Below, piece by piece: positions 6,299 through 54,682 of a stretch of DNA of 64,000 bases. The notes beneath the pieces were generated by a model, which saw nothing but the letters and a program-made list of their open reading frames with translations, was not told where the DNA came from and ran no database searches. A program made the position numbers and the translations under genes. This DNA comes from a bacterium (lineage in GTDB: Bacteria; Patescibacteriota; Microgenomatia; UBA1406; GWC2-37-13). The stretch is taken from contig JAJYOJ010000002.1 in NCBI GenBank assembly GCA_021796235.1, forward strand, positions 34,660 to 98,659, in the 5' to 3' direction. Each line of letters opens with the position of its first letter. Position 1 is the stretch's first letter.

Positions 6299-6637
6299 AT
6301 GTTAGTTTGTTATCATTGTAGAAAAGGTCTTCTTTACGGCCGGAGTCACACTCACCACAGAGGTGTTGCGGGTGGACGCTGGAAGAAAAGAGCGCCCAAA
6401 ACCAGGCGCATCTTTGAATCTAATCTACAAAGAGTAGATATTTTAGTGGGTGGGCAAGTCAAGCGCGTGGTGCTCTGCACAAGGTGTTTAAAACGGGTTA
6501 AAAAGGACATTAAAGACGGCAAAAAACCGTTTGTTCAGCTAGCTCGTTTGAGGACCAAATCCGAAACTCGAAGCACGAAACTCGAAACAAATCCTAAGCT
6601 TAAAAAAAACAAAACAAAAACTGTTTCGAAAATTTGA
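6299..6637 (+). CDS. rpmB: 50S ribosomal protein L28 with basic C-terminal extension
   Basis: N-terminal CxxC...GxxxSH pattern and ...FESNLQRV...VCTRCLKR resemble L28. The tail contains a 14-bp x2 tandem repeat at 6562-6589. Confidence 0.65.
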   Translation: MLVCYHCRKGLLYGRSHTHHRGVAGGRWKKRAPKTRRIFESNLQRVDILVGGQVKRVVLCTRCLKRVKKDIKDGKKPFVQLARLRTKSETRSTKLETNPKLKKNKTKTVSKI

Positions 6638-6641
6638 ATTT

Positions 6642-7277
6642 TTAATACTTCAGCTTCTCTAATTCTCCATCTTTTTCCTCATAAAGAGGGATGTTCTGTT
6701 CAAGCGCCCGTTGGGTGAACATGATGCCCCGGAGATGGTCGACTTCATGCTGGATTATGATTGAGTCAAATCCGCCAAACCACTGTTTTTTTACTTCTCC
6801 GGCCAAATCCTGATATTCAAGAAGAATTCTTCCGCTTCGGGTTATCGGACTCCAGATCCGAGGGATGGAAAGGCAACCTTCAAGCTTCTGGGGAGGTTTT
6901 TTCTTTTGCGACAGTTTCTGTCGCTCGTGCTGCTTCTCTTCTGCGAGGCTCTCCGCCCGGCGGGCGGAATCCGCTTCTCGAAGAGTTTCCTCACTCGCGA
7001 CACCTATTGTATCTTTTACTTGGTTTGAATGTTTTATTATTTTCGGATTTATGAAGACCTGAAGTTTCGCTTTCTTATTTTTTTTAACGATAAAAAGCGC
7101 GAGATCTTCGCCGACCTGAGGAGCTGCCAACCCGACGCCTTGCGGATCAACCTGCGCATCCAGAGTTTTTGCCATCTGATTGACCAACTCGACAATTTTT
7201 TTGTCAATTTTTTTTACAGGTTTTACAGTCGAGGTTAAAATTTTATTTGGAACTACGACTATCTTGAGCATAGGCAA
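6642..7277 (-). CDS. def: Peptide deformylase carrying an extra segment of roughly 40 aa
   Basis: Motifs GVGLAAPQVG, EGCLSIP and QHEVDHLRG are present. Motifs 1 and 2 are about 86 aa apart, versus about 45 in E. coli Def. The extra segment coincides with repeat copy 6916-7008. Confidence 0.9.
   Translation of the reverse strand: MPMLKIVVVPNKILTSTVKPVKKIDKKIVELVNQMAKTLDAQVDPQGVGLAAPQVGEDLALFIVKKNKKAKLQVFINPKIIKHSNQVKDTIGVASEETLREADSARRAESLAEEKQHERQKLSQKKKPPQKLEGCLSIPRIWSPITRSGRILLEYQDLAGEVKKQWFGGFDSIIIQHEVDHLRGIMFTQRALEQNIPLYEEKDGELEKLKY
6916..7008. repeat. Family-1 GC-rich palindromic element, copy A (inside def)
   Basis: About 79% identical (73/92 by hand alignment) to 8148-8238. The 14-nt left end and 18-nt right end are identical. 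Termini form an imperfect inverted repeat, tgtcgctcgtg/cactcgcgaca. Confidence 0.85.
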
Positions 7278-7788
7278 GAAATATGATATTTAATACAAAA
7301 GCCGTAGCCGCCATAAGAGGTATCGAGATATACCCGAGATAAAATTGGTAACCTTTTACGCAGGAAACACCTGAGGCATCGCAGGGTGAAAGTAAAGAGG
7401 AGGGAAAACGTTGTAAAATATATTGATAGATGCCCAAAGCGGCGCCGAGCGTGTTCATTACCAGTAAACAGGGTTTTAAGACCTTTTTACTGCGCAGTAT
7501 TCCAATATATAAAAGAATCGGTTGGGGATACAGTAAAATTCTTTGATACCAACAAAGAGCGCAGGGTTTAAGTTTTACGATGTCAGAGAAAAAAAGACTG
7601 CCCAATATTCCAAATAACGAGATAAGAAATACAAAATAGTACGAATTTTTGCTAAGAATTTTTTTGACCATTTTATGAAGCTCCAAAAGCTTGAATTTTT
7701 CCAGCAAAAAGAGCGTACCTAATCCAGCTATAAAAAGCTCGCCAAGAACTGTCAGGCAGGCCAAAAGCTGCGGAATAAACTTTACCAT
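7243..7788 (-). CDS. DsbB/BdbC-family disulfide bond formation protein
   Basis: Multi-TM protein with CALCWYQRILLYP (CxxC + WYQR, BdbC-like) and a second Cys pair (CDASGVSC). The likely start is MVKFIPQLL at 7788. Confidence 0.75.
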   Translation of the reverse strand: MVKFIPQLLACLTVLGELFIAGLGTLFLLEKFKLLELHKMVKKILSKNSYYFVFLISLFGILGSLFFSDIVKLKPCALCWYQRILLYPQPILLYIGILRSKKVLKPCLLVMNTLGAALGIYQYILQRFPSSLLSPCDASGVSCVKGYQFYLGYISIPLMAATAFVLNIIFLAYAQDSRSSK

Positions 7789-7810
7789 GGAGATATTATA
7801 TAATAAAATG

Positions 7811-7838
7811 TCAAAGCTCAAATCTCAAAGCTCAAATC
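7811..7838. repeat. Perfect tandem duplication tcaaagctcaaatc x2, directly abutting the GT2 start codon
   Basis: Read directly: 7811-7824 = 7825-7838. The ATG of ORF 7840 follows 1 nt later. Confidence 0.9.
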
Positions 7839-7839
7839 T

Positions 7840-8709
7840 ATGAAACTGTCTTTATGCATAGCTACCTTTAATGAAGAAAAGAATATTCACTACCCATTAG
7901 ATTCAGCTTACGATTTAGCCGACGAAGTAATTATTGTGGATGGTGGATCAACCGACAAAACGGTTGAAGGTGCTAAAAAATATGGGAAAAAAATCAGCGT
8001 AATTATTGCCGACAACCCCGCCATGTTTCATAAGAATAAGGAGAAGGCGATTGAGGCGGCAAAAGGGGAGTGGATTTTACAGCTGGATGCAGATGAAGCT
8101 TTGTCAGAAGAGTTAAAAAAAGAAATCGAGCAAATTATTGCGATAGATTCTGTCGCTCGTGATGCTTCTCTCCTGCGAGCCTCTCCTATGAAAACCGGAA
8201 TCCGGTTCTCGGAGAGTCATCTCACTCGCGACACCTATCGCAACAATGTTGCTTACTGGGTTCCCCGCAAGAATTGGTTTTTAAGTCGATTCCTCACAAA
8301 AGGTGGTCAGTATCCCGACTACACGATAAGACTTTACAAAAACGGCGTTGCTCATTTTCCCTGTAAATCAGTCCATGAAAACGTTGATGTCACAGGTACG
8401 GTTGGTTATCTGAAAAATCCAATTCTCCATTATGCCGATCCGAATTTCTCCCGTTATTTGTTGCGTTGGGACCGTTATAACAATCTTGAGGCAGAAATAC
8501 TCAAAAAAAAGATCAAAGATCAAAAATCAAAGATCAAAAATTTGCAATATTTTTTTGATTATTTGCTGATCAGACCGCCGGTTACTTTTTTTTCTATGTA
8601 TTTCAGGCACCTAGGATTAGTTGATGGGTTGCCGGGTTTCATTTTTGCCTTATTTTCCTCAATTCGATTTTGGGCAATCTATGTTAAAACTATACAACAC
8701 ACTAACTAG
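7840..8709 (+). CDS. Family 2 glycosyltransferase carrying an in-frame repeat insertion
   Basis: LSLCIATFNEEKNI..., IIVDGGSTDKT and LQLDADE are GT2 signatures. The segment DSVARDASLLRASPMKTGIRFSESHLTRDTY is encoded by repeat copy 8148-8238. Confidence 0.85.
   Translation: MKLSLCIATFNEEKNIHYPLDSAYDLADEVIIVDGGSTDKTVEGAKKYGKKISVIIADNPAMFHKNKEKAIEAAKGEWILQLDADEALSEELKKEIEQIIAIDSVARDASLLRASPMKTGIRFSESHLTRDTYRNNVAYWVPRKNWFLSRFLTKGGQYPDYTIRLYKNGVAHFPCKSVHENVDVTGTVGYLKNPILHYADPNFSRYLLRWDRYNNLEAEILKKKIKDQKSKIKNLQYFFDYLLIRPPVTFFSMYFRHLGLVDGLPGFIFALFSSIRFWAIYVKTIQHTN
8148..8238. repeat. Family-1 GC-rich palindromic element, copy B (inside GT2 gene)
   Basis: See copy A. It has the same + strand orientation, but the host gene is on the opposite strand relative to def. 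Confidence 0.85.
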
Positions 8710-9820: not shown

Positions 9821-10041
9821 AGTCTATTTTCGTGATCACCCAGAACAATTCGATTGCCGCGCACTTCTATTTTAGTTTTTTTAACCTCTACCATAACGTC
9901 TCCGATATCTTGAGCTAAAGTGATGAGGACATTATCTATTTTATTATTAATCCTAGCTTCGACTTTTTTAATATCTTCTTTCGTTACAAAAGTTTTTTTA
10001 AATTCAGCAACAAGATTTTTTATATCAATTTTCGTAAGCAT
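9787..10041 (-). CDS. Small coiled-coil protein (hypothetical)
   Basis: 84-aa charged, helical-looking ORF at the 3' end of the minus-strand operon. Confidence 0.4.
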   Translation of the reverse strand: MLTKIDIKNLVAEFKKTFVTKEDIKKVEARINNKIDNVLITLAQDIGDVMVEVKKTKIEVRGNRIVLGDHENRLQKLEMNPRAL

Positions 10042-10101
10042 ACGAGCATTTTAGTTTTTCAAAAATTATAGTCAATCGCTTATAAGCGACAAAATAGAGA
10101 C

Positions 10102-12264
10102 TTAAGCCTTTCTTCCGAATTTTTCTTTGGAGAGTTTGATGATCTTTTCGCGGTTGTCGTTTTTTAGAGCGGGAAGAGGCAGGGTCGTTGCCGGGAAGGG
10201 AGCCGAAGTCATACCGTCAATTGACAGCTTCAAAACTATTTCATATTTACCGAGAGCCACCAGATCATTTTCATCATAAATTTCACCGAATTCATAAGTA
10301 AGCACATGGCCGTCACGCGCTCCTACGACAAAAGAAATTAGAGAGCCGACGTTGCCAAAAATTGCCTGGGTGACTTCTTCATCAAGCTGTTCAATATATT
10401 GGTTTGCCAGAGAAAGGGAAAGCCGATATTTCCGGGCCTCCGACAGAATTTTTATAAATGAGGTTGTTGCGAAGTTCTGAAACTCATCAACAAAAAGGAA
10501 AAAATCCCGGCGATCGCTTTCTTTGACAAATGAACGATTCATGGCAGCCAGTTGAATTTGAGTGATGATCATCGCTCCAAGTAGGGCCGCATTATCTTCA
10601 CCCAATTTTCCTTGCGAGAGGTTTAAGATTAGAATTTTTCCTTCGTTCATAATCTTTTCGAGATCGATTGAAGATTTGGGCTTGCCCAAAATATTTCTAA
10701 TCATTTTTGAGGTTACAAACTGGCCGACTTTGTTTTGGATCGGTGAGATGGCCTCGGCTTTAAGGCGGTCGGGCATTTTGGCAAACTCGTGTTCCCAAAA
10801 ATTCTTGAGTACAGGATCTGCAAGGTTGCTGACGACTTTTTTCCGGTAATTTGCATTGGACAAAAGATTCAGGATGTCAACCAGGGTTGCGTCGGGCGTT
10901 TCCAAAAGTGTAAGTATGACATTTCTTAGAATGTACTCAAGTCTCGGACCCCAGCTTTCCTTGTAAAGTTTATAAAAAATCGAGACAATCCCGGAAGCCA
11001 CCAGATCTTTCTGCTGTTTATTTTTAACTTCCAAGACATTTAAAGAAAACGGCCGTTCGGTATCGAATGGTTCAAGATAGACGACATCGTTTATTCGGCG
11101 CTTGGGAATAAAGTCCAGAATGGTTTCTGACAGGTCGCCGTGCGGATCGATAATACCAACACCGCGGTCTTTTCTGATATCGTCAATTGCCATATTGGCG
11201 ATAAGTGTTGATTTTCCGGCGCCGGTTTTTCCGATGATGTAGACGTGTTTTCTGCGGTCCTCGGTTTTTATGCCGAAAATCGTTTCTTTATTTTTAAACT
11301 CGGTCTTGGCAAAAAAATTGACGTCTTTTTTCATTTCATCTTTTATATTGTCTGCGACCGGTAGGTTTTCCGGCGGCTCACCGCTCAAAGTCTTTCCCCA
11401 GGCAATATTTTTGACTCCCGCCATAAGATATCCCGGCGGATGCCATAAAGTCGCAAGTTCTTGGGCGTTTAAAACCTGAAATCTTCGCTCAAAATAATAA
11501 GTGGTTCGCTTTTTTATCCTCTCAAGCAAAAGCGGTTTAAAAATATAAGGACGCTTAAAAACAAACTGGTTGCCTTCACCCAGAGAGAAACTTCCGAATG
11601 TCCCGGAAAGATTTTGCAGATAGGGCAGAGCCGGAAGATTTTGGGGAGTTGCAACCAGAAGCCGGACGAGCGCCTTACCACCCTGGAAGGAGGCTTTTCG
11701 CATAATTATTTGGCGCTGCGGATTTTGCGTGTACTTGTCGGCGGCCGGATCGTAGACCATGTGATGTGTCTGTTCGACCGCACGGTCCGCCCAGGCAAAA
11801 ACTGCCGGAGTTACCAGGATTTGGATGAGCATTTTGACATCGGCAGGCTGGCGTGCCAAAAAACCGATTAGCGACGACAGAGGATCAATATCTTTAAAAT
11901 CAAAATAGGTTTTTATGGGAAGGTAAAAATAGGAGTTTAGCGCAACCTCGCCGACTGCCAGATTTGCGGATTTAGTGACGATACTCATCGGATCGGTGGT
12001 TTTTTTGACGATTGAAGACGGAAACGAAGAGGTAACCAGACTTTGGATAAAAGTTTCATTTTCAGTTGGAGTGGTTACATAAAAATAAATCGTCTGGCCC
12101 ATTAAGAATATCTCAAAAGCATAGGTTTTGGGCCGTAAAAAAGGCCGCTTCCACCACGGGATATAGGGGTAAGAGAGGAGTGAGGCGAAAATCTGCGACG
12201 CCGCCTCAATCGGTGTTTCGTCGTCTTTAGGATTACGGATTTGGAGGTGCGAAAGTTTAGCCAT
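10102..12264 (-). CDS. VirD4/TraG/TrwB-like (HerA-FtsK superfamily) P-loop ATPase with no TM segments
   Basis: Walker A IIGKTGAGKSTLI, then IIDPHGDL, and Walker B FLFVDEFQNF. About 330 aa of non-hydrophobic N-terminal domain of unknown family. Confidence 0.65.
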   Translation of the reverse strand: MAKLSHLQIRNPKDDETPIEAASQIFASLLSYPYIPWWKRPFLRPKTYAFEIFLMGQTIYFYVTTPTENETFIQSLVTSSFPSSIVKKTTDPMSIVTKSANLAVGEVALNSYFYLPIKTYFDFKDIDPLSSLIGFLARQPADVKMLIQILVTPAVFAWADRAVEQTHHMVYDPAADKYTQNPQRQIIMRKASFQGGKALVRLLVATPQNLPALPYLQNLSGTFGSFSLGEGNQFVFKRPYIFKPLLLERIKKRTTYYFERRFQVLNAQELATLWHPPGYLMAGVKNIAWGKTLSGEPPENLPVADNIKDEMKKDVNFFAKTEFKNKETIFGIKTEDRRKHVYIIGKTGAGKSTLIANMAIDDIRKDRGVGIIDPHGDLSETILDFIPKRRINDVVYLEPFDTERPFSLNVLEVKNKQQKDLVASGIVSIFYKLYKESWGPRLEYILRNVILTLLETPDATLVDILNLLSNANYRKKVVSNLADPVLKNFWEHEFAKMPDRLKAEAISPIQNKVGQFVTSKMIRNILGKPKSSIDLEKIMNEGKILILNLSQGKLGEDNAALLGAMIITQIQLAAMNRSFVKESDRRDFFLFVDEFQNFATTSFIKILSEARKYRLSLSLANQYIEQLDEEVTQAIFGNVGSLISFVVGARDGHVLTYEFGEIYDENDLVALGKYEIVLKLSIDGMTSAPFPATTLPLPALKNDNREKIIKLSKEKFGRKA

Positions 12265-12267
12265 AGA

Positions 12268-15102
12268 TTAGTTGTTCTTTATCTTCAGTATACATAAGAA
12301 AGTTATTATGAGCAATCCGAAGCCTATAAATTCCAGATACTGCGGCCAGAAAATAATTGTAATTTTTTTTGTTCCCGACCCAACGGACCACCCATTTGCC
12401 CAGTTATTGACAAGGACATGATCTGTCAGAAGTTTGCCATTAGCAAAAGCGATCCAACCGAGGTCAAAGCTCTGGTTCAAAACAATATAACTACTATTTG
12501 TTGTTACTTCATAAGTGAAGTAATTGATTTTTTTGGCTTGAAAATCTAGACTGGATCGAGATGGAATTTCAAAATAGCCTTTCTTTACGAATTTTATATT
12601 TTTTAATAGATTGTAGGGGAAAAGATAAACTTCCAGAGCTTTAATTTCATTTAAAGAAGTAATTCCATTATATGAGTTATTCTGAAAGTCAAGGCTATAG
12701 CCCAATCCGTACTTATATTTTGGAGGCACGATGTAATATTCGAGATTTTTTATCAATCTATCTTCGATATACGATTGATCCTTAGTCTCATCTAGAAGAT
12801 AGAAAAATAAACGTCTTCCTGATAAATTCGTATTATTTATACTTATCAAGTAACCATAATTTTGGTCAAGAAAAGGAGCATTATAGCCAAAACAGGTTGT
12901 TTTTGAGGCGCATTTAGTTATAGCAGTTAGTTTCGGATCGAAGTTTTTAACCAAGATTTTGGGTATGTAAACAGTAAGTAGTTTATCAGTAATATCTGTG
13001 ATTAGGCTCGACGTCAAGTAGGTTATATTACCGTTGATATTAAGTATCGCTTGATTTTGCGTTGTGGGTACAACAATATTGTAGTCTTGTGGATTTATCT
13101 GCAAATTTACTTTAACGATAAAGTTACTTTGATCTTCGCTTATAGTCCAGTTCTTATTTGAAATACGTGTTTGGCTCATTAATTCTGAAAAAGGGTAGTA
13201 CTCATCATACAATCCAGATTGGTCAGTCTGAAAACCGTTGGTATCTAAATATGCCCTGTCATCATTAGTTATCCTATATTTTGGGCCAATGTTGGGAATG
13301 TTTTGGTAAGTAGTTATAAAGTTTTTAACATTAGTTTGTTTCACCTGATAAAGCGCCAGATCGGGCCATTTTTTAACAAGAGAAACCATTGGACTTTCAT
13401 TTAATAGCTTATCAATTCGATCATATTGCATGCCTTTAAGAGATGAAACTACAGGCAAGAGTGAAGAATCCACCAAAAGATAGTCTATATCATATTTTTT
13501 TAATACCATCTCGAATTCATTAATATTTTCCGACTCAGTCGCAGCTTTCATTTCCCAAAAATAACCCTCACTTTTATCACTCCAAACGTCAAATGTTCGA
13601 GAAACAATCGGTTGCTCAATCCCGTACCACAAAAAACCCGAGCCATCATAGCCCCAGTGCGTGAAGAACCAGCCCCAAAATGTATAATCGGGCAGGAGAG
13701 CAATTCTTTGGTTTTTATCTACAGTTTTCATGTAATTAATTAACTGCGCATATTCGTCTGGTATTTGTATCTTCATGGTTGGAGAAAAGAAGGAGCCTTG
13801 GAAAGCCGGAAATGCGTACAAAAAAATAAAAAAACAGATAAAAGCTTCAAATAAATGTATTCGCTTAAAGACCGGTACCAAGAGCAGAATTCCTTGAGTG
13901 AAAAAGTAACTGAATAAGAATGAATAAGGAATAATAAACTTAGTAAAAGGCGATCTAAAGATCTGATCAATGAAGTGAATGCTTCGTAATGTGTCATTGA
14001 GGGTTTGAATCAGAACCGTATTATTTAATAAAGCTACAACAATTGGAATCAGGGCTATTGTGAAAGGCAAACTATATTTATTTTTTTTAAAGTTTCCTAT
14101 GAGACCAATTAAGGCAATGCCAAAAAAAATGTAAGGTAGGGTTCCAATTAAAGATATTCGAAAATATTTTTTCCAGGGTGCAAAAAGTTGACGATTGCTT
14201 TTATCGAAAAGGTCAAAATAAAAACCTTCCATTTTAATAAAGTAGGGGAGAGTTCCTTTTTCTTTGTTTTGGTAAAAAACATCTCCGGTTGCGATTTGAT
14301 TTATCTTTGCCGATTCAACTATACTTCCACCTCCGTTTTTCAAAAAATAGAGCTGTGGCAAGATCCAGAACGAGTTAACCAGGAAAATAATGAAGAAGAC
14401 AATTAGAGACTTCTTAATCATTAATGTTGATCTTGACTGAATTAGAAGGCCTATTAATAAACAAACCAGTATGATGATGTAGACTACGAATAACGTTTGA
14501 ATATATGCCTGGCCCACTGCAAGCAGATTTATTATAAAAAGCAGAAAATAATCGCGTTTTTGAACCTGTTCTTTATTAATTGTTTTTAAGAATATCCAAA
14601 CCTCCCAAGGCAGAAAGGCAAAAAAGGTTGAGAATGCTTCAAAAGGCACATAGAAAATTTGTATTGTTCCCAGATTAAGCATATAAAATAAAGATCCTAA
14701 GAAATTAACGAAGTTATTTTTTTTATCTTTATTAGTAAAATCTAAAAGTTTTAGCATTCCCAGTCCTCCAATAAGGAATAGAAACAATTGAACAAAATAA
14801 CGGATAATATTTTGAGGTAAAGCGAAAGATATCAACCAAACGAATGTTGCTCTTACCAAATCCGAAGCATGCGCCATCCCCGCGGTTAAGCCTAAGCTTT
14901 GATATTCTTCCCAAACGGAAAATAAAGCACGCTTAAAGGCTAAAGATGGGTATAGTTCTGTTTGTAGACTGTCCCAGCCAAGAAGATAGCTACATGGTTT
15001 ATAATTTATAAAAAAAACAAGCGCAGCTATCAAGATTATTAGAATTAAAAAGAGGTTTTTTTTAAAAAAAATCTTCATGGATTTACATCTATTGTACTTC
15101 AC
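12268..15102 (-). CDS. Large polytopic membrane protein, GT-C-like (AftD/DUF3367-like) putative glycosyltransferase
   Basis: 944 aa with about 12 or more TM helices in the N-terminal ~480 aa. The early loop GWDSLQTELYPSLAFKRALFSVWEEYQSLG resembles AftD-type GT-C enzymes. Large extracytoplasmic C-terminal domain plus a final TM. Alternative start at 15078. Confidence 0.45.
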   Translation of the reverse strand: MKYNRCKSMKIFFKKNLFLILIILIAALVFFINYKPCSYLLGWDSLQTELYPSLAFKRALFSVWEEYQSLGLTAGMAHASDLVRATFVWLISFALPQNIIRYFVQLFLFLIGGLGMLKLLDFTNKDKKNNFVNFLGSLFYMLNLGTIQIFYVPFEAFSTFFAFLPWEVWIFLKTINKEQVQKRDYFLLFIINLLAVGQAYIQTLFVVYIIILVCLLIGLLIQSRSTLMIKKSLIVFFIIFLVNSFWILPQLYFLKNGGGSIVESAKINQIATGDVFYQNKEKGTLPYFIKMEGFYFDLFDKSNRQLFAPWKKYFRISLIGTLPYIFFGIALIGLIGNFKKNKYSLPFTIALIPIVVALLNNTVLIQTLNDTLRSIHFIDQIFRSPFTKFIIPYSFLFSYFFTQGILLLVPVFKRIHLFEAFICFFIFLYAFPAFQGSFFSPTMKIQIPDEYAQLINYMKTVDKNQRIALLPDYTFWGWFFTHWGYDGSGFLWYGIEQPIVSRTFDVWSDKSEGYFWEMKAATESENINEFEMVLKKYDIDYLLVDSSLLPVVSSLKGMQYDRIDKLLNESPMVSLVKKWPDLALYQVKQTNVKNFITTYQNIPNIGPKYRITNDDRAYLDTNGFQTDQSGLYDEYYPFSELMSQTRISNKNWTISEDQSNFIVKVNLQINPQDYNIVVPTTQNQAILNINGNITYLTSSLITDITDKLLTVYIPKILVKNFDPKLTAITKCASKTTCFGYNAPFLDQNYGYLISINNTNLSGRRLFFYLLDETKDQSYIEDRLIKNLEYYIVPPKYKYGLGYSLDFQNNSYNGITSLNEIKALEVYLFPYNLLKNIKFVKKGYFEIPSRSSLDFQAKKINYFTYEVTTNSSYIVLNQSFDLGWIAFANGKLLTDHVLVNNWANGWSVGSGTKKITIIFWPQYLEFIGFGLLIITFLCILKIKNN

Positions 15103-15982
15103 CGATAAATTGCAGACCCAGTCGAGAATACTTCATCGAGTAATGAAGTTTACGCATTTTCTCATAGAGCCAGAAGACAAGTGTCTGCGGTAAAAGTAAA
15201 ACTAATAGTGCTTGAAACAGCGTAAAAATTATTCCGGTTATTGTTGGACGATAATGATATTTTATAACAGCTCTAAATCTTGACAAAAGAGTGTATAAAA
15301 ATGTTTTTTTAATGTCTTTAAGTGAAGTGTTTTTATCGTGCAGTCTATAAAGTAATACGATATCTCCTAGATTTTCAACTTTTCCGTATTGGAATAGTTT
15401 AAATAATAGTTCTAACTCTTCTGCCGTATCCAGTCCGTCGTGGTAAAACTCAAAATCCTTAGGTAATCTTTTTCGCGCGATCATTAATGTGGGTTGCTGC
15501 AAAGGTACAAACTTAAAAATGTACGAATATATTTCCTTAAATTTGGTCGGAAATATTTTTTCTCCAATAACTTCACCGTTTTTATTAATTATTGAACACT
15601 GACCACCAACCGCCACTGTATTTCTGTTTTTTAACAAAAATACCACCTGTTTACTTATTCTGGTTTTAATCGCAACGTCATCAGCGTCCATTCTGGCGAT
15701 AAAATCGCCTTTTGCTTTTGTAATTGCATATTTTACAGTTTCTGAAACTCCGATATTTTTTTTGGCGATACGAAAAATTCGAATTCGTTTATCCCGTTTT
15801 TTAAATTTTTTTAAAATTTGGTATGAACTGTCGGTTGAAGCATCGTCAATGATAATAAATTCGAAATTTTTGTAGGTCTGTTTTAAGATACTTTCAATTG
15901 ATTGCACTAAGAAATCGCCAGCATTATAAACTGGCATGATGACCGAAACGAAAGGTCTTTTTGTGTTTTGATTTTTTTTCAT
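15089..15982 (-). CDS. Family 2 glycosyltransferase
   Basis: VSVIMPVYNAGDFLVQSIESILKQTYKNFEFIIIDDASTDSS and RMDADD motifs. The start MKKNQ at 15982 is preceded by GAGGAAAT. Confidence 0.85.
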   Translation of the reverse strand: MKKNQNTKRPFVSVIMPVYNAGDFLVQSIESILKQTYKNFEFIIIDDASTDSSYQILKKFKKRDKRIRIFRIAKKNIGVSETVKYAITKAKGDFIARMDADDVAIKTRISKQVVFLLKNRNTVAVGGQCSIINKNGEVIGEKIFPTKFKEIYSYIFKFVPLQQPTLMIARKRLPKDFEFYHDGLDTAEELELLFKLFQYGKVENLGDIVLLYRLHDKNTSLKDIKKTFLYTLLSRFRAVIKYHYRPTITGIIFTLFQALLVLLLPQTLVFWLYEKMRKLHYSMKYSRLGLQFIGEVQ

Positions 15983-16269
15983 ATTTCCTCTGACCACAAA
16001 GTTATTTATGGTCATAGGAAAGAGCGGAAAAATATTAGTGCTTTATGGACATTGGCGGGGAGCCAAGGTGGACCTCAAAAAGAGGTACACAAAGCATAAT
16101 ATATTCCGCTCATCGGGTTCAGGGCAGCGCATCGCGCTGTTAAAGAGCTTTACGGCCGGGGTACTGTCAGAGACAGTGTTGGTCCATCCGGACGGGGAAA
16201 GCAATCGGGGAAGCCGAGATCTCATGCGGCGATGTCAAAGAATGACATCCTTTTCTGTTTTAGCGCTGT

Positions 16270-17115
16270 CTACTGGCAGGCAGACCAACCGCTAAGCGGT
16301 GTTTCGGTGGCATGTGCCCAACCGAATTGAACCGCTTGCGCGATACGGAAGCAAAACTCCGTATTGGCCCACTCATTCTTAGTGATAGCGACAAAGCCGT
16401 CGGTGACGGTTGTGTCGAGAGTACCAGGACCCGCAACTGCCTTGTAGACGCCATTTGACGTACCATCTACGTTAAAACCGCCAACAATCGCTGTGGTTCC
16501 AGTGAGCAATGGGATTACCCAATGCTTGGTGTGGTCATTCAAGTCTGCACAGACTGTTCCTTGCGGGACATTCTTGCAGGGTACACCGGTTTCTAGATAC
16601 ACCGATGGATGACCGATCTCTGGTTGGGGCGGTAAGTTGTAAGGCGCCACGTTAGTCGTGATTGGCGACGGTGCGGGTTGGTTCCCAAAGTTCGAGTCGG
16701 ACAGTCCAGCAATTTCCTGTGGCCAAGGGTTGATTACCCCACTTGTGACGTTGCCGCCAACCGGTGTGTTGTGAATAAGACAGTTTCCGCCATCGCACAT
16801 TTGACCGCTGTCTAGGACGATCTTCCATCCAAAAACAGTGGACCCTGCATCAAAATGCAAACTGCGATTTTGACCAGTTTCCATGCGTTGTGGCGAAGAC
16901 GGCGTCGGTACGACGGGTGGCGCTACAGGCGGTGCAGGTGCGGGCGGCGCAACGGGCGCTGGTGTTGCAATGGGCGGCGTAGGCCAGTGGAACGCGAGAA
17001 CAGCATAGAAGCCGCTCACAGCGAGATAAACGATGGCCGCAACTGCGAGTACGACAACGACAGCGAGTGCTACCCAAAGTAGCAACCGCGCAATGGTTCC
17101 AAGAACTCCAAACAT
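16270..17115 (-). CDS. GC-rich island: membrane-anchored protein with Pro-rich linker and Cys-containing ectodomain (hypothetical)
   Basis: 281 aa. N-terminal TM region LLLWVALAVVVVLAVAAIVYLAVSGFYAVLAF, linker PPIATPAPVAPPAPAPPVAPPVVPTP. RBS GAGGAGG is upstream of the ATG at 17115. Confidence 0.7.
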   Translation of the reverse strand: MFGVLGTIARLLLWVALAVVVVLAVAAIVYLAVSGFYAVLAFHWPTPPIATPAPVAPPAPAPPVAPPVVPTPSSPQRMETGQNRSLHFDAGSTVFGWKIVLDSGQMCDGGNCLIHNTPVGGNVTSGVINPWPQEIAGLSDSNFGNQPAPSPITTNVAPYNLPPQPEIGHPSVYLETGVPCKNVPQGTVCADLNDHTKHWVIPLLTGTTAIVGGFNVDGTSNGVYKAVAGPGTLDTTVTDGFVAITKNEWANTEFCFRIAQAVQFGWAHATETPLSGWSACQ

Positions 17116-17152
17116 TCTAGGCCTCCTCGTACAGGATTTACGTACTCACGAC

Positions 17153-17461
17153 TCACGACTTTCCCGTCAGTTTGTCCCAGAAATCGCGGGGCGATCCAAT
17201 CCAATCCTTGCGGGATTGGGGAGCCGGCGACGGGGTGACGGGCGGGGTCGGGACAACGGGCGGGACGGGGACGAGCGTGCTGGGAGCACCACATTTGCTG
17301 CAGAAGTTCGCAGAGTACCGATTTTTGGTTCCGCAGTTAGCACACGTCCAGTCAACGGATTTTGCAACTCCGCACTCCGAGCAGAACTTAGCGCTCATAG
17401 GCGCTTTGTGACCGTTTGAACAGGTCCAAGTTCTACCACCTTTCTTCTTTGTAATAGCCAT
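17153..17461 (-). CDS. GC-rich island: double zinc-ribbon protein with Pro-rich tail
   Basis: 102 aa. CSNGH...CSECG and CANCG...CSKCG form two CxxC-type ribbon pairs, followed by PVPPVVPTPPVTPSPAP. RBS AAGGAGG is upstream. Confidence 0.75.
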   Translation of the reverse strand: MAITKKKGGRTWTCSNGHKAPMSAKFCSECGVAKSVDWTCANCGTKNRYSANFCSKCGAPSTLVPVPPVVPTPPVTPSPAPQSRKDWIGSPRDFWDKLTGKS

Positions 17462-17487
17462 TTTAGGCCTCCTTGAGAAAATAGTCG

Positions 17488-17565
17488 CTAAAAGCGACGG
17501 GTTTTTACGACACTAACTTTACTTACCTCTAAAAGAACGATTTCGGTACCGTCAGACCATTTCAT
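17488..17565 (-). CDS. Possible 25-aa leader/micro-ORF at the head of the island operon
   Basis: Own translation: MKWSDGTEIVLLEVSKVSVVKTRRF. It is preceded by AAAGGAGGTGATAA. Too short to judge coding potential. Confidence 0.25.
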   Translation of the reverse strand: MKWSDGTEIVLLEVSKVSVVKTRRF

Positions 17566-17587
17566 TTATCACCTCCTTTCAAATAGA

Positions 17588-17634
17588 ATACGTGCGCTCT
17601 AAGGACAAAAAATTTATCCTCATAGTGCACGTAT
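17588..17634. promoter_or_regulatory. 18-bp-arm inverted repeat (operator-like) upstream of the island operon
   Basis: atacgtgcgctctaagga (17588-17605) versus the rc of tcctcatagtgcacgtat (17617-17634): 15/18 match, 11-bp A/T spacer. Confidence 0.5.
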
Positions 17635-17744
17635 CCTAGAGCTTAATCAAAATAACCGTTTTGCAACAATTATTTCTTTCAGCATAAAGGATGTGATTGC
17701 TTCAAGGAGTACCATGTGGTCTATCTTTCCCACATAAAATAAAA

Positions 17745-18055
17745 TATTCCCTGTCAGCTTTTTTGAAAAGCTGATAGGCATCAATTTCTCATTTCCGCAA
17801 ACTCAAGCAAATTGAGTTTTGGATCTTCGAACGATGCCTAAACTCATTTGTAAAAGTGCGACAAGATTTGCTGCTTACGCTTGCTTGTTTTACGCAAGCC
17901 TCCTCTTGTCACCGATATCCCTCTTTTCATCGAGGGTTGGCAAAAGCTATCTTTGCCCCCTCGATGGGGGATTTCCTCGGGTTTTTAAGCCCAAGAAGTG
18001 AAGGGCAGCCCTTCTGCTGATTTAAGAGCACCCTCCACTTCCTAGACTTAAAGCC
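17745..18055. ncRNA. Candidate structured non-coding RNA (family and strand unresolved)
   Basis: About 300 nt with no ORF and many nested complementary segments: catcgaggg...ccctcgatg enclosing ggcaaa..tttgcc; gaagtg...cacttc; aggcatc...gatgcct enclosing aaactcaa..ttgagttt; tcagctttt-ttg-aaaagctga. Confidence 0.3.
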
Positions 18056-18084
18056 AAAAAAAACCCAAGAGGTTGTTTCTTGGG
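18056..18084 (-). terminator. Intrinsic terminator of the DUF11 gene
   Basis: Stem cccaaga/tcttggg with a 7-nt loop. An A8 run on the + strand gives a U-tract on the - strand. Confidence 0.7.
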
Positions 18085-18278
18085 TTCAATGACAACAATC
18101 TCAGCAGCGATTGTACTACCTATAGTAAACATATCAGCAGTTATATTTTTGCTATAGTTAAGTTTGCAAAAGTCCATATTATTTTATCCACAGACACAGC
18201 ACAATATCCTAATTAAAATTACTATATCCAATCAGCACGGATAATGATGGACTTTATGCCTAATTGTCAAAGCTGCGA

Positions 18279-18917
18279 TTAACTAATTTTTTTCTTCAAG
18301 AGCCAGCCGGCTCCAACGCCAATTAAATCGAGGGAGAGAAGTACGGCGCCGAATTCCGGTCCGGCTGACGGAGTGGTTGCCACGCCTAAAACCTGTTTTT
18401 CGATACAAAACTGCGAACTGGAGTTGTCAGATACGGTTCCGTTGGAAGCCGTAGCTGTATTTGTTTGACAAAATAATCCCTGATCAGCGGGAAGCTGATT
18501 TTGGGGTAAGACCTGCATCTGAAGATAATAAGTTTTTTGATCACCCGGATTAAAGTCGCCGGCGCCGAAGGTCAAAACTCGGCTATTGGAATCAAACGAT
18601 CCGGGGCCTGAAATAGGCTGGATGTCAGTTGGAACATTATCGGTTACAGTGACATTGGTTATTGTTACATTTGAGGTATTTTGGACCACTAATTTGAAAA
18701 AAAGCGTTTGTCCGGGTGCGAAGCGAGGATCAGAAGGTGAAAGATTGTCAACGAAGGTAGCGTTGGTTGCCTGGCCGCCCGATGTACCGGGTGTGCTTAC
18801 CATCTTTTCGATCAAAATCGACAGCGAGGGACCGGGTGCACCGTACTGTCCGTACGCAGCAGTGGCAAGGAAAAGTAAAGTAGAAATAGCCGACAGAACT
18901 AATGCCAGTTTTGTCAT
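18279..18917 (-). CDS. DUF11-like repeat-domain surface protein with C-terminal PEF + TM + KKK anchor
   Basis: Signal peptide. LVVQNTSNVTITNVTVTDNVPTD is typical of the DUF11/conserved repeat domain. The C-terminus is SAGPEFGAVLLSLDLIGVGAGWLLKKKIS. Confidence 0.6.
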   Translation of the reverse strand: MTKLALVLSAISTLLFLATAAYGQYGAPGPSLSILIEKMVSTPGTSGGQATNATFVDNLSPSDPRFAPGQTLFFKLVVQNTSNVTITNVTVTDNVPTDIQPISGPGSFDSNSRVLTFGAGDFNPGDQKTYYLQMQVLPQNQLPADQGLFCQTNTATASNGTVSDNSSSQFCIEKQVLGVATTPSAGPEFGAVLLSLDLIGVGAGWLLKKKIS

Positions 18918-19018
18918 AGGATTGTATTATACTATAAGATCAAATCGTTGTCAACTATAGGACCAATCAGAATTATTAATTATTAATTCTTAATTTTTAA
19001 AGTATAATAGAGCTCATT

Positions 19019-19612
19019 ATGAAGCTAAATGCCAGGGAGTTACGGGAGTTGGAGGAAAAACGGGCGCAGGGGAAAATTCGTGAGATTAAGCGAAATCCGA
19101 TCTATTTTATCCTGGAAAATATTTATGATACTTACAATATCGGCGGCTTATTTCGTTTGGCTGATGCTTTGGCAATTGAAAAAATGTATCTCTGCGGCGA
19201 CACCGAAATTCCTCCCAATTCGCGGATCAAAAAAGCTTCGATAGGTACCTATAAAATTGTTCCTTGGGGATATAAAAAAAATACTAAAGAAGCAGTTTCA
19301 GACTTTAAGGACGACTCGAAAAAATTTTTAGCTCGGCTCAACTTGAATGACTCTAACAACGAGTCTCGTAAAAATTTTTCCTCGTCGTCCATTATCGCAG
19401 TCGAACAGCATATCGAAGCAGTTTCCTACACAAATGCAGACTATTCATTTCCCATTGCTCTCATTTTCGGTAACGAGACCTACGGAATTTTGCCCGAAAC
19501 TTTAAAGTTAGCAGATCAGATTGTTGAAATACCGATGTGGGGGATAAATAAATCGTTGAATGTGATTGTTTCTGCGGCAATTGTGAGCTATTGGGTTATA
19601 AACAAACTTTGA
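19019..19612 (+). CDS. TrmH/SpoU-family RNA 2'-O-methyltransferase
   Basis: YNIGGLFRLADALAI, LIFGNETYGI and IPMWGINKSLNVIVSAAIVSY motifs. There is a low-complexity insertion of about 30 aa between motifs 1 and 2. Confidence 0.8.
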   Translation: MKLNARELRELEEKRAQGKIREIKRNPIYFILENIYDTYNIGGLFRLADALAIEKMYLCGDTEIPPNSRIKKASIGTYKIVPWGYKKNTKEAVSDFKDDSKKFLARLNLNDSNNESRKNFSSSSIIAVEQHIEAVSYTNADYSFPIALIFGNETYGILPETLKLADQIVEIPMWGINKSLNVIVSAAIVSYWVINKL

Positions 19613-19683
19613 GCCGACAGTGGGAATCGAACCCACAGTCTAACCCTTACCAAGGGTTTGTTTTACCACTAAACTATATCGGC
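19612..19683 (-). tRNA. tRNA-Thr (anticodon GGU)
   Basis: Hand-folded cloverleaf: acceptor GCCGATA/TGTCGGC, D stem GTTT/AAAC, anticodon stem AACCC/GGGTT with loop TTGGTAA, T arm GTGGG-TTCGATT-CCCAC. It abuts the TrmH stop codon. Confidence 0.85.
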
Positions 19684-19753
19684 TAAAAAAAGTTTTCGCT
19701 AATTATTATACCATTGAAATTGCCTAGTTCATTTGCTATCCTTTCTTCCACTT

Positions 19754-20416
19754 ATGGACATTAAATATTTGGGCCATGCTTCGTTCTTCATGAAATCCAA
19801 AGACGCAAAACTTGTAACAGATCCGTATGACGCCTCGATCGGAATAAAGTTTCCCAAAACTGAGGCAGACATTGTTACAGTTTCACACCAGCATCGTGAT
19901 CACAATCGGTCCGACCTGGTTGTTGCGCCGCCCGATCAACAGATTTTGGTTATCGACATGCCCGGAGAGTTTGAAAAAAATGGTATGCGGATTTTTGGTT
20001 TTCAGAGTTTTCACGACAAAAAAAAGGGGGCGGAACGGGGCGGAAATATATTGTATAAATTCGAAGCAGATGGCGTTTCGGTTCTTCACTGTGGCGATCT
20101 CGGAGTTGTGCCCGAAGATAGTTTTTTGGATGCGATCGGCGAGGTGGATGTTTTGATGGTGCCGGTGGGTGGTTTTTTTACAATTGACGCCGACGATGCA
20201 GCTCAACTAATTAAAAAAGTGGAACCGTCGATTGTTATTCCGATGCATTATAACCAGCCCAAACTCGATCAGAAAGTTTTTTCCAAACTGGGAACCGTAC
20301 AGGAATTCCTAAAAAAAATGGGAAAAGAAAACCTTCCTCCAGTTTCCAAACTAACAGTGAAGGCTGAAGAGTTGGAAGAAGAAATGAAAATTGTTGTGAT
20401 GGAGATTAGTAGTTAG
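19754..20416 (+). CDS. MBL-fold metal-dependent hydrolase (UPF0173-like)
   Basis: MDIKYLGHASFFMKSKDAKLVTDPY and VSHQHRDHN motifs. Confidence 0.8.
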   Translation: MDIKYLGHASFFMKSKDAKLVTDPYDASIGIKFPKTEADIVTVSHQHRDHNRSDLVVAPPDQQILVIDMPGEFEKNGMRIFGFQSFHDKKKGAERGGNILYKFEADGVSVLHCGDLGVVPEDSFLDAIGEVDVLMVPVGGFFTIDADDAAQLIKKVEPSIVIPMHYNQPKLDQKVFSKLGTVQEFLKKMGKENLPPVSKLTVKAEELEEEMKIVVMEISS

Positions 20417-54381: not shown

Positions 54382-54682
54382 GAGGCTAATTTAATAAGTT
54401 TAGTAAGCTACTACGCTCCAAAGTTGAGTATCACTCTATGTGGATAACTGCCAGGATTTGAGGCTAAAAATTAGAATTTAGATCTGTATGACGCTCTAAA
54501 TTACATTCATTCTTACATTGTTTAGCGTTCTAATTTATTAAAATTTAGCCTCAAAAATTATATTTTAGACCAATATTATCTTCTAAACTTAATAGGGTTC
54601 TATTTCTCGTGCGTTCCTTATGTGCTATTTCTTAATAATTTAGCCTCGAAATCGATAGTTTAGAGCAATTATATGTTCTAAA
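54382..54682. repeat. Degenerate array of four 41-42-bp units, each ending in a 24-bp TTTAGN-N12-NCYAAA palindrome
   Basis: The units are 54382-54422, 54460-54500, 54546-54587 and 54641-54682. Each has a core gaggcta (units 1-2) or its complement tagcctc (units 3-4) plus an A/T tract, followed by tttag(a/t)-N12-tc(t/c)aaa. Confidence 0.7.

Follow-up and report, generated by a model that had tools for sequence, protein, structure and literature searches.

The closest described counterparts of the elements reported here are the Rickettsia palindromic elements RPE-1 to RPE-10 (Ogata et al. 2000 Science 290:347; 2002 Genome Res 12:808; summarised in PMC10969869 and PMC6649704). As these summaries present them, the RPEs are palindromic repeats of about 100-150 nt without genes of their own, found in the small AT-rich genomes of host-dependent bacteria. 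Many copies lie in frame in unrelated housekeeping genes and others are non-coding, the extra peptide is compatible with the fold and function of the protein, and no clear transposase or target duplication is described. The family analysed here, Family-1, shares these features, the compatibility of its extra peptide with fold and function being a prediction from sequence. The RPEs are also reported to lose their repeat identity over time (PMC6649704).

Other systems resemble Family-1 in part. Bacterial MITEs, such as the Correia elements of Neisseria and the QMITEs of Coxiella (PMC10969869, PMC5896051), are likewise short, multi-copy and non-autonomous, have terminal inverted repeats, give transcripts that form hairpins, and are occasionally fused in frame with host ORFs. 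The small size and terminal inverted repeats without transposase coding that characterise MITEs are found in Family-1 as a palindrome of 105-125 nt. REP/BIME elements, including GTAG-tagged REPs, are mobilised by RAYT (TnpA-REP) transposases (PMC3733652). REPs and Family-1 elements are both imperfect palindromes that form DNA hairpins, on which the mobilising activity would act, and that show no target duplication; moreover, many Family-1 copies start with GTAG or ATAG. However, REPs are extragenic sequences of 20-40 nt, usually clustered and present in hundreds of copies beside a RAYT gene, whereas Family-1 elements are at least 100 nt long, frequently intragenic and solitary, and no RAYT gene was present among the genes around the window copies. 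GC-rich palindromic clusters also occur in fungal mitochondrial genes, and coding palindromes are known from the mitochondrial genes of Nematomorpha (PMC6649704). These resemble Family-1 in being hairpin-forming inverted repeats in coding sequence that are apparently maintained and are translated, as Family-1 presumably is. They are organellar, and the two arms in Nematomorpha code for conserved residues of the host protein, without a dispersed sequence family with intergenic copies, whereas the Family-1 element is an inserted, presumably dispensable loop. A search of the available literature found no prior description of such elements for CPR/Patescibacteria, in keeping with the earlier note on this DNA, which knew of none for such genomes.

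The window, that is, the whole 64-kb stretch of Candidatus Roizmanbacteria DNA that we analysed, contains two Family-1 elements about 1.2 kb apart. Copy A (6906..7012, + strand) consists of an outer stem, TTGCGACAG / CTATTGTAT, and a 95-nt core, CAG..CTA (6912-7006), and lies in the peptide deformylase gene def (6642..7271, - strand; 209 aa; Pfam PF01327, E 1e-38). Copy B (8138..8243, + strand) consists of an outer stem, TTGCGATAG / CTATCGCAA, and a 94-nt core, TAG..CTA (8144-8237), and lies in a family 2 glycosyltransferase (GT2) gene (7840..8709, + strand; 289 aa; Pfam PF00535). As the earlier note had stated, both copies have the + orientation while their hosts lie on opposite strands, and neither interrupts the frame: copy A is read from the minus strand as DTIGVASEETLREADSARRAESLAEEKQHERQKLSQ and copy B from the plus strand as AIDSVARDASLLRASPMKTGIRFSESHLTRDTYRN. 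Peptides that would span the insert junctions are, for example, ...VKDTIGVASEETLR / EADSAR..., ...QHERQK / LSQK... and ...IIAIDSVAR.

The similarity of the two copies is significant, as had been claimed. A repeat search of the window aligned 6906-6954 with 8138-8186 (90% over 49 nt) and 6965-7007 with 8196-8238 (88% over 43 nt); blastn within the window gave E values of 2e-11 and 8e-8, and nhmmer gave 1e-33. The mean column identity of the copies with their flanks was 86% over 125 columns (MAFFT). The identical ends of 14 nt (left) and 18 nt (right) were reproduced, and the 18-mer is expected 0.01 times in the window by chance. The limits first proposed, 6916-7008 and 8148-8238, were too narrow, because the flanking inverted repeat given above as the outer stem is part of each copy. 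With a covariance model of the family, copy A scored 103.6 bits (E 9e-25) and copy B 119 bits (E 7e-29), and no third copy was found in the 64-kb window by covariance model R1 with filters off or by nhmmer/blastn. The arms of each copy match those of copies from other genomes and genes (93-95%) better than those of its neighbour; for example, the arms of copy A are 93.5% identical to those of a copy in a GT1/GT4 gene from another metagenome.

A Family-1 element is about 105-125 nt long and forms a single long imperfect hairpin. Its outer stem of 8-13 bp is specific to each copy and ends in (A/G/C)TAG...CTA(T/C/G). Inside it lie the conserved arms, TTCTGTC[G/A]CTCGTGA ... TCACTCG[C/T]GACACC and CTTCTCTNCTGCGAGGCTC ... 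ATCCGCTTCTCGNAGAG, and an apical stem that is hypervariable, yet always paired; the element owes its polarity to bulges and to a G-T mismatch that is fixed. Whichever strand is folded, copies A and B each give a single long hairpin of -40 to -50 kcal/mol (z -3.6 to -6.7); none of 200 shuffles folded equally well. In an alignment of 87 copies, 95.3% of the cells at 33 predicted pairs were paired, and 24 of the 33 pairs showed double compensatory changes. The covariation score was 0.437, compared with 0.144 in shuffles, none of 500 shuffles reaching the observed score; with slid partners it was at most 0.174. These results support the hairpin fold that had been suggested from the two copies. The compensation of ctcttc/gaagag by ctctcc/ggagag was correctly recognised. 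That between gcgga-a-tccgc and ccgga-a-tccgg is also real, but it belongs to the GAGGC/GCTTC helix of the family-wide fold (alignment columns 53/90) and not to a small local hairpin. One-sided (G-U) intermediates were almost absent from the 87-copy alignment, which points to a palindrome at the DNA level.

Public genomes were scanned with a pattern keyed on both termini, and metagenomes with an exact internal pattern of 23 nt, a selection that inflates the apparent conservation of the metagenome copies. The genome scan gave 4 members, which shared the internal sequence too, and the metagenome scan at least 120 loci; viral contigs scanned with the internal pattern gave no match. From these 124 loci nhmmer returned at least 132 matches, representing at least 112 unique copies, and nearly all listed copies were full length (HMM positions ~3-104). 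Among the 112 unique copies listed, 28-38 (about one third) lay inside long ORFs and the rest (about two thirds) were intergenic. The coding copies were in frame, in both orientations, and their hosts belonged to 12 or more unrelated gene families. The hosts identified by Pfam were def, GT2, MiaB-like radical SAM, GT1/GT4, Fmt, acetyl-CoA synthetase, P-type ATPase, SAM methyltransferase, a second radical SAM protein and DHFR; others were membrane proteins without a Pfam match. Vertical inheritance accounts for some coding copies: many are orthologous (miaB, GT1, GT2), so that independent insertions are fewer than copies. The window holds 2 copies per 64 kb, and contigs of 57-896 kb carried only 1-2 exact-pattern matches each; given this low apparent density, recent activity of the elements is unproven. 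There was no Rfam match at gathering thresholds, and a permissive Rfam scan of 6850-8300 gave only sub-threshold, chance-level matches outside the element cores. A two-module profile of the '-' and '+' frame peptides, a short query of low power, gave 3 trivial matches among 147 candidates. Family-1 is probably a family of dispersed non-autonomous palindromic repeats of Candidatus Roizmanbacteria and related Microgenomates (CPR/Patescibacteria).

Coding and intergenic copies were compared in frame and length. The '-' mirror frame was open in 25 of 25 coding copies but in only 22 of 62 intergenic ones, and the '+' mirror frame in 23/25 and 46/62, respectively. Core length modulo 3 equalled 2 in 19 of the 25 coding copies, compared with 15 of the 62 intergenic ones. 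From these frame and stop-codon statistics we infer that the segment is retained in mRNA and protein, where it would form a surface-loop peptide of about 30-35 extra residues. Inversion of the core would exchange the loop peptide for its mirror-frame counterpart, which the lack of stops in both mirror frames of the coding copies makes possible.

In Def, the insert from copy A lies between FINPKII and KLEGCLS. The called start of def is the downstream ATG, which gives a protein of 209 aa and not the 211-aa ORF; an identical protein is present in GCA_027328685.1. Def homologues usually have 175-190 aa and possess a hypervariable loop at the site of copy A, with loop lengths of 14-55 residues. 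The earlier note had remarked on the unusual distance between the Def motifs on either side of the element. Only about 35 of the approximately 41 extra residues come from the element; the remainder is a Lys-rich linker, which is variable across all Roizmanbacteria Def proteins. In Def, the host examined structurally, the insert is predicted to lie in a surface loop: it coincides with a loop of 6 residues in solved Def structures, 48 residues of the window Def corresponding to 6 residues in 1WS0. An AF2 model of the window Def had a mean pLDDT of 67.5, with values below 60 over residues 86-142. The 36-aa insert itself, a short query of low power, had 0 matches at E <=0.001 in a phmmer search of 1.84 billion representatives.

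In GT2, the insert from copy B lies between DADE..LKKEIEQII and VAYWVPRKNWF. This loop spans 36 to 81 aa among 120 homologues, and its shortest state (P0221) is without any insert. GT2 orthologues with an element at the copy B site show 64-70% amino-acid identity to the window GT2. Copy B is thus an old insertion common to diverged orthologues, whereas the def genes of the syntenic loci L129 and L130 lack the element. The loops of def and GT2 both appear, from the sequences compared, as hot spots for several element families, which the earlier note had not seen.

Comparing the orthologous sites, we found that the orientation of an element can apparently flip at a fixed position, a possibility absent from the earlier note. 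The GT2 orthologues of L130 and L129 both carry a 94-nt core at the copy B site, in the same orientation as the window in L130 and inverted in L129; that is, the site is '+' in the window and L130 and '-' in L129 and L071. The inverted core of L129 has the same length as in the window and L130 and keeps the GT2-specific loop TATGAAAGCCGG, which indicates inversion in place. At the miaB site, 3 loci were '+' and 8 were '-' among the matches listed, and a site upstream of a purD-like gene had opposite orientations in L057 and L084. Simple inversion as the sole route was rejected from the miaB genes of L022 and L031, whose flanks are 89-93% identical while orientation and apical loop both differ, indicating replacement.

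The palindrome itself is probably maintained actively, a further point that the earlier note lacks. In the GT2 trio (window, L129, L130), which was collected by protein homology and is free of the bias of the pattern scan, element identity was 86-87%, compared with 70-77% for the host genes. Between the window and L130 the outer stem had undergone a compensated change in place, from GCGATAG/CTATCGC to GGGATAG/CTATCCC. The conservation above the host gene is observed directly.

The distribution of the copies suggests mobility. Intergenic empty sites were found in L063 (compared with L057/L084) and in L086 (compared with L098). In both comparisons the flank identity was about 80%, too diverged to define junctions, and no clean target-site duplication was found, a result that is ambiguous at this divergence. 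The orthologue comparison proposed earlier succeeded for empty sites, with element-free def in L129/L130 and short-loop homologues of Def and GT2, but was ambiguous for target duplication. The flanks of the elements are inverted and not direct repeats. A TA...TA boundary (TAAAATTCTTATAG...CTATAAGAATTTTA) is present in many of the intergenic copies and resembles the TA target duplication of IS630-type MITEs. No transposase or autonomous parent with matching ends was seen, and there were no solitary ends in about 0.9 Mb of fetched loci. An intein was rejected because the insert is only about 35 aa long, is read from opposite strands and has intergenic copies.

In our view Family-1 is likely to be a new family of palindromic repeats in CPR Microgenomates that behaves like the RPEs and is mobile or undergoes recombination. 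The RPE-like behaviour proposed from the window held on every testable point, namely dispersed copies, in-frame hosts, empty orthologues and the hairpin; for the Def insert a surface loop is predicted. According to this explanation, copies would spread or be exchanged at the DNA level, most of them landing between genes. Those arriving in coding DNA would survive only in tolerant surface loops, with the host frame kept open by length and sequence, and would, like the Rickettsia RPEs, stay in the mRNA and add about 30-35 residues to the protein. In the resident palindrome compensatory changes occur in place, and the core can be turned round or exchanged without a change of site. Transposition and recombination are both conceivable as mechanism, and the insert may be neutral or functional.

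Other explanations were weighed against the same data. The hairpin may be a functional cis-element selected by cells, with coding copies as by-products or in dual use; it could be a bidirectional terminator or a stem that stabilises mRNA, could bind a protein, could serve in replication or recombination, or could be the precursor of a small RNA. The very strong covariation agrees with this, as strong structural conservation could mean that the hairpin has its own function rather than being selfish DNA. The GT2 element is conserved above its flanking coding DNA in the unbiased set, and the pattern-selected pairs agree. In addition, copies often lie within 20 nt of gene ends, and some intergenic copies have outer stems of A-runs and T-runs (AAAAAAATAG...CTATTTTTTT) resembling bidirectional intrinsic terminators. 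However, intergenic copies have no preferred orientation with respect to genes (20 '>E>' and 17 '<E<'), and 11 lie between divergent genes but only 3 between convergent ones, so that a terminator role as the sole explanation was rejected. A stable terminator-type hairpin within def, fmt, miaB or acs would be counter-productive, the near absence of G-U intermediates better fits a DNA palindrome or templated correction of the arms than selection on an RNA fold, and no Rfam family matches. We regard a cis-element as unlikely.

It is very unlikely that the element is excised or skipped so that the extra peptide is never made, whether by stem-guided RNA excision (intron-like or bulge-helix-bulge-like, guided by the flanking outer stem) or by translational bypassing, for which the mitochondrial GC-rich 'byp' elements offer a comparison. 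The outer stem does flank the conserved core directly and varies with each copy, as an exon-like flank stem would, and ribosomes would need to unwind a very stable hairpin. But an excised or bypassed sequence would not need to be open, and all 25 coding copies are stop-free and in frame, while 40 of the 62 intergenic copies contain stops in that frame; coding core lengths are also biased modulo 3. Moreover, the gene context revealed no gene split by a stop-containing copy among tightly flanked intergenic cases. It is extremely improbable that the similarity in the window stems from duplication or gene conversion between the neighbouring genes, or from a protein segment of ancestral or convergent origin, even though the copies are only 1.2 kb apart on the same strand without a third in the window. 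Translation from opposite strands makes peptide homology impossible, other assemblies hold more than 100 further copies, within other genes and between genes, each window copy is nearer to foreign copies than to its neighbour, and copy B is old, being shared with GT2 orthologues of 64-70% identity, and copy A is missing from syntenic def. The dispersed copies, the syntenic comparison and the arm identities refute local duplication. The ancestral protein segment, which the earlier note had named as the finding that would overturn its claim, is rejected by the opposite strands in two hosts, the empty orthologues and the at least 112 copies, intergenic ones included.

Compared with its nearest counterparts, the RPE-like family proposed here has features of its own. 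It occurs in a phylum unrelated to Rickettsia, and its sequence looks different; given the different phylum, we do not assign it to the RPE-1 to RPE-10 sequence families. In contrast to the RPEs, its hairpin is kept (95% paired, in-place compensation, GT2 copies conserved above the host), it stands in either orientation at the same site with both mirror frames open, and its outer stem is copy-specific. In contrast to MITEs, Family-1 has no parent insertion sequence that we found and shows no clean target duplication; it is entirely one hairpin and not terminal repeats around unrelated DNA, and its coding fraction of about one third is far above the MITE norm.

A bolder and rather doubtful proposal, which we rate low, is that these are more than tolerated junk, namely a maintained, orientation-switching system of coding hairpins. 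If so, correction templated by the hairpin, recombination of one arm with the other or a specialised enzyme acting on the TAG/CTA ends would keep the palindrome perfect, lengthen it outwards and invert or exchange the core where it stands. The surface loops of the essential CPR enzymes Def, Fmt, MiaB, Acs and glycosyltransferases would toggle between two unrelated peptides, and the few permissive loops would be hot spots colonised by successive element families. Such a system could give episymbiotic bacteria with tiny genomes a general path to rapid diversification of surface loops.

A large part of bacterial diversity belongs to the CPR/Patescibacteria, whose genomes are small and streamlined, so that dispersed selfish repeats inside their essential genes were unexpected. 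The likely presence of such repeats would extend the 'protein-coding palindrome' phenomenon of Rickettsia to an unrelated uncultured radiation and may explain a part of CPR protein length variation, as in the loops of Def (14-55 residues) and GT2 (36-81 residues). Annotators and users of structure prediction should be aware that loops of this kind may be translated repeat DNA. The upkeep of the palindrome and its inversion in place offer a tractable case for the persistence of hairpin DNA in coding sequence and the birth of peptide segments. The Family-1 covariance model could also serve to locate polymorphism between strains, and break points of assemblies, in CPR metagenomes. Among the loci collected, L005 and L006 are labelled 'uncultured Gammaproteobacteria'; their flanks resemble CPR metagenome contigs, and these labels therefore look doubtful.

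Two copies of a GC-rich imperfect palindrome, here called Family-1, were found on the + strand of the window. Copy A (6906-7012) lies inside the peptide deformylase gene def (6642-7271, minus strand) and copy B (8138-8243) inside a family-2 glycosyltransferase (GT2) gene (7840-8709, plus strand); their GC content is 0.52-0.59, compared with 0.39 window-wide. The repeat search matched the copies in blocks of 49 nt (90% identity) and 43 nt (88%), and MAFFT gave 86% column identity with the flanks included. The 18-nt right end occurs twice in the window versus 0.01 times expected by chance, and nhmmer (E ~1e-33), blastn (E 2e-11 and 8e-8) and a covariance-model scan with filters off located exactly these two copies. 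The earlier note was right about the similarity of two same-strand segments, but it drew them too short: the repeat runs further, through the flanking inverted repeat (TTGCGATAG / CTATCGCAA in copy B). It was also right that the copies keep the frame in opposite-strand genes. With both copies on one strand and the host genes on opposite strands, one repeat sequence gives two different readings, ...GVASEETLREADSARRAESLAEEKQHERQKL... in Def and ...DSVARDASLLRASPMKTGIRFSESHLTRDTY... in GT2.

Genes on DAHWTW010000004.1 (GCA_027328685.1) encode Def and GT2 proteins identical to those of the window, and homologues of these proteins are labelled Candidatus Roizmanbacteria, Microgenomates or Patescibacteria in the source records. 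This places the source genome among the CPR bacteria.

A scan of a genome collection that required both termini found 4 loci, which are true members since all four also share internal sequence: an acetyl-CoA synthetase gene in Roizmanbacteria RIFCSPLOWO2_01_FULL_37_12 and a P-type ATPase gene hold one each, and two are intergenic. A second scan, of metagenomes, used internal words and made no use of the termini; it found at least 120 loci. When an HMM built from five seeds was run on the loci of both scans, 132 matches, 112 of them unique, were obtained among the matches listed. Almost all cover the full model, so the termini accompany the core. Several contigs end within a copy, as expected for an assembly-breaking repeat. 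Copies elsewhere, which a mobile repeat such as the earlier note proposed should have, number more than 100 and are both coding and intergenic.

Among the matches listed, long open reading frames enclose 28-38 of the 112 unique copies. The reading follows the element's '-' strand (...GVASEE.LREAD..SLAEEK.HERQNLP...) in about three quarters of them and its '+' strand (DSVARD.SLLRGS..NPLLEE..HSRHL) in the others. Pfam confirmed as hosts def, GT2, a MiaB-like methylthiotransferase, GT1/GT4, methionyl-tRNA formyltransferase, acetyl-CoA synthetase, P-type ATPase, a SAM methyltransferase, another radical-SAM protein and DHFR; further hosts are membrane proteins without a Pfam match. The intergenic copies are closely hemmed by genes (37 tandem, 11 divergent, 3 convergent) and have no orientation bias. 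Two carriers, L005 (CAZBEJ010000007.1) and L006 (CAYZAZ010000041.1), are labelled 'uncultured Gammaproteobacteria'; the flanks match those of CPR-like metagenome contigs at 72-80% identity, and probably the label is wrong or the contigs are mis-binned.

Orthologous empty sites were found. The loci L129 (GCA_041643075.1) and L130 share the gene order M50 peptidase - L28 - def - GT2 with the window, and def there (182-183 aa) is free of the element. The Def loop between FINPKI and KLEGCLS ranges from about 14 to 55 residues across Roizmanbacteria, and comparison with a solved Def bore out the extension that the earlier note had seen, with 48 residues in the window Def versus 6 in 1WS0; the AF2 model of the window Def has low confidence over this loop. 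The corresponding GT2 loop runs from 36 residues, in the shortest homologues, to as many as 81. Intergenic empty sites were also present (L063 versus L057/L084; L086 versus L098), although the junctions of L063 and L086 have diverged too far to decide for or against a target duplication, which the note had proposed to look for. On these alignments, we regard the element as an insertion and not as an ancestral peptide. A DsbB-family gene (7243-7821, minus strand) stands between def and GT2, as it does in L131 and L132; it is absent from the otherwise syntenic L129 and L130, and at its 3' end it shares about 29 nt with the start of def.

The proximity and likeness of copies A and B might suggest a local duplication. 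In their arms, both window copies are closer to copies in other genomes and genes (93.5% and 94.8%) than to each other. Alternatively, the element might be removed by excision or passed over by bypass, in which case its frame would be free. We compared 25 coding with 62 intergenic copies, anchoring the frames on the palindrome's GTC codon. The '-' mirror frame was stop-free in 25/25 coding versus 22/62 intergenic copies, the '+' mirror frame in 23/25 versus 46/62, and the TAG..CTA core had a length of 3n+2 in 19/25 versus 15/62, counts that are not independent because many coding copies are orthologous. The stop-free frames and the core-length pattern argue that ribosomes would read through the coding copies, without excision or bypass.

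The remaining alternative, a functional RNA or DNA hairpin, also agrees with the structural data but is considered unlikely. Copies A and B each fold as a single long hairpin on either strand (z-scores -3.6 to -6.7). When 87 unique full-length copies were aligned along with 10-nt flanks, they gave a single hairpin of 33 pairs with 95.3% of cells paired; 24 of the 33 pairs change on both sides. The covariation score was 0.437, versus 0.144 for shuffled alignments (0/500 reach it) and at most 0.174 with partners slid. Ascertainment makes the words CTGCGAGSCTC and ATCCGSTTCTCG invariant, and the covarying pairs lie outside them, in the outer stem, GTC[A/G]C/G[T/C]GAC, CTCT[TC][TC]/[GA][GA]AGAG and the apical stem; the third of these was among the compensatory changes that the note had pointed out. 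One-sided G-U intermediates are nearly absent from this alignment, and for this reason we read the pattern as constraint at the level of double-stranded or hairpin DNA, or as templated arm-to-arm correction, and not as classical selection on RNA structure. The outermost 8-13 bp vary in sequence between copies and keep complementarity (AATTCTTATAG/CTATAAGAATT, AAAAAGTAG/CTACTTTTT, TGCGGTAG/CTACCGCA, CTAAAGGTAG/CTACCTTTAG). In the orthologous GT2 copies, a change in this stem was compensated in place, with GCGATAG/CTATCGC in the window versus GGGATAG/CTATCCC in L130.

The same site can hold either orientation. At the GT2 site the element is '+' in the window and L130, and '-' in L129 and L071. 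All three syntenic GT2 copies have a core of exactly 94 nt and a common loop variant, CTCTCCTATGAAA[A/G]CCGGAATCC, not seen in the rest of the set. The simplest reading is that one ancestral insertion was later inverted in place. At the miaB site (NSYGADLI[..]LKPIYVK), the element is '+' in 3 loci and '-' in 8; L022 and L031 have flanks 89-93% identical and differ in both orientation and apical loop, meaning that resident copies can be replaced too. An intergenic site upstream of a purD-like gene behaves likewise (L057 versus L084). Orthologous coding copies are generally 78-98% alike versus 54-86% for coding flanks, a difference that the 23 forced bases inflate. The GT2 trio escapes this bias, and its elements are 86-87% identical versus 70-77% for the host genes.

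These observations fit a non-autonomous palindromic repeat family that may spread or recombine at the DNA level. In coding DNA, survival would require a permissive loop and an in-frame position, and the copies would be translated. The palindromic symmetry would permit recombination or template switching between copies in either orientation, and by this route, which we favour, the core could be inverted and replaced. No transposase, parent element or clear target duplication was found for Family-1 in the loci examined. In-frame survival in permissive loops and translation of coding copies are described for Rickettsia palindromic elements (RPEs) (PMC10969869, PMC6649704), and the RPE-like behaviour proposed in the earlier note is upheld by in-frame copies in unrelated hosts, intergenic copies and def orthologues without the element. 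However, the Family-1 palindrome is kept whereas RPEs are said to decay (PMC6649704); moreover, its core flips or swaps in place and its flanking stem is copy-specific. Full-text searches, of incomplete coverage, that paired palindromic elements or MITEs with CPR or Patescibacteria gave nothing relevant, and the RPE and MITE literature makes no mention of such bacteria; novelty in CPR bacteria is probable, not certain.

The Def loop (about 6890-7030) and the GT2 loop (about 8100-8260) are insertion hot spots in Roizmanbacteria and Microgenomates. Among the homologues (P0001-P0120 for Def, P0121-P0240 for GT2), the recurring inserts are Family-1 and Family-2 in both orientations and AT-rich K/N/S/Q-rich segments. 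Family-2 is a GC-rich hairpin (consensus GGTGGCGGAGGT..CCCGACAGCGCGCAG..AGCACTGGCGGGA..CCTCCGACAGGACCC). Its window copy (about 56531-56640; about 110 nt, -48.8 kcal/mol) lies in frame in a FemAB-family gene (ORF 56208-57308, minus strand), read as ...GPVSSSFPSVLDRRRISPDLRAARSPDASTP... In other Roizmanbacteria it occupies the Def loop (L131) and the GT2 loop (L132); these two copies are about 85% identical to each other, with copy-specific outer stems, and GT2 homologues carry both readings ('GGRAPDSAQ..STGG.ETSDR' versus 'GPVS.SFPSVL..SRHPS'). The AT-rich Lys/Asn/Ser-rich inserts look like a further repeat class. Since all three kinds occur at the same loops, acquisition of in-frame repeats by a few permissive loops appears to be general in these genomes.

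AT-rich short tandem or palindromic tracts occur at 6562-6600, 7806-7840 and 8503-8545 (CGAAACTCGAAGCA twice, AAATGTCAAAGCTC twice, GATCAAAGATCAAAAATCAAAGATCAAAAAT). One encodes the C-terminal tail of L28 (KSETRSTKLETNPK), another lies upstream of GT2, and the third is in frame within GT2 (KKKIKDQKSKIKN) and absent from the L129/L130 orthologues; similar K/N/S-rich inserts fill the GT2 loop in other genomes, e.g. NLESKIQNSESKEKNKKILNSKF. Inverted-repeat pairs with 16-22-nt arms and 38-72-nt spacing (19309-19390, 54457-54555, 15769-15874, 46878-46984, 40819-40912; e.g. GGACGACTCGAAAAAATTTTTA / TAAAAATTTTTCCTCGTCGTCC) may represent terminators or further families of palindromic elements. The region 16100-18900 (GC 0.5-0.7 versus 0.39) contains several of the window's most stable local folds and may hold a compositionally foreign gene or genes. 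Downstream of cysS, at about 10000-20000, are a DUF87/TrwB-type ATPase (720 aa) and large proteins without Pfam domains, genes seen in L001/L003, with a MerR/HTH_17 gene upstream; together these could be an integrated mobile element.
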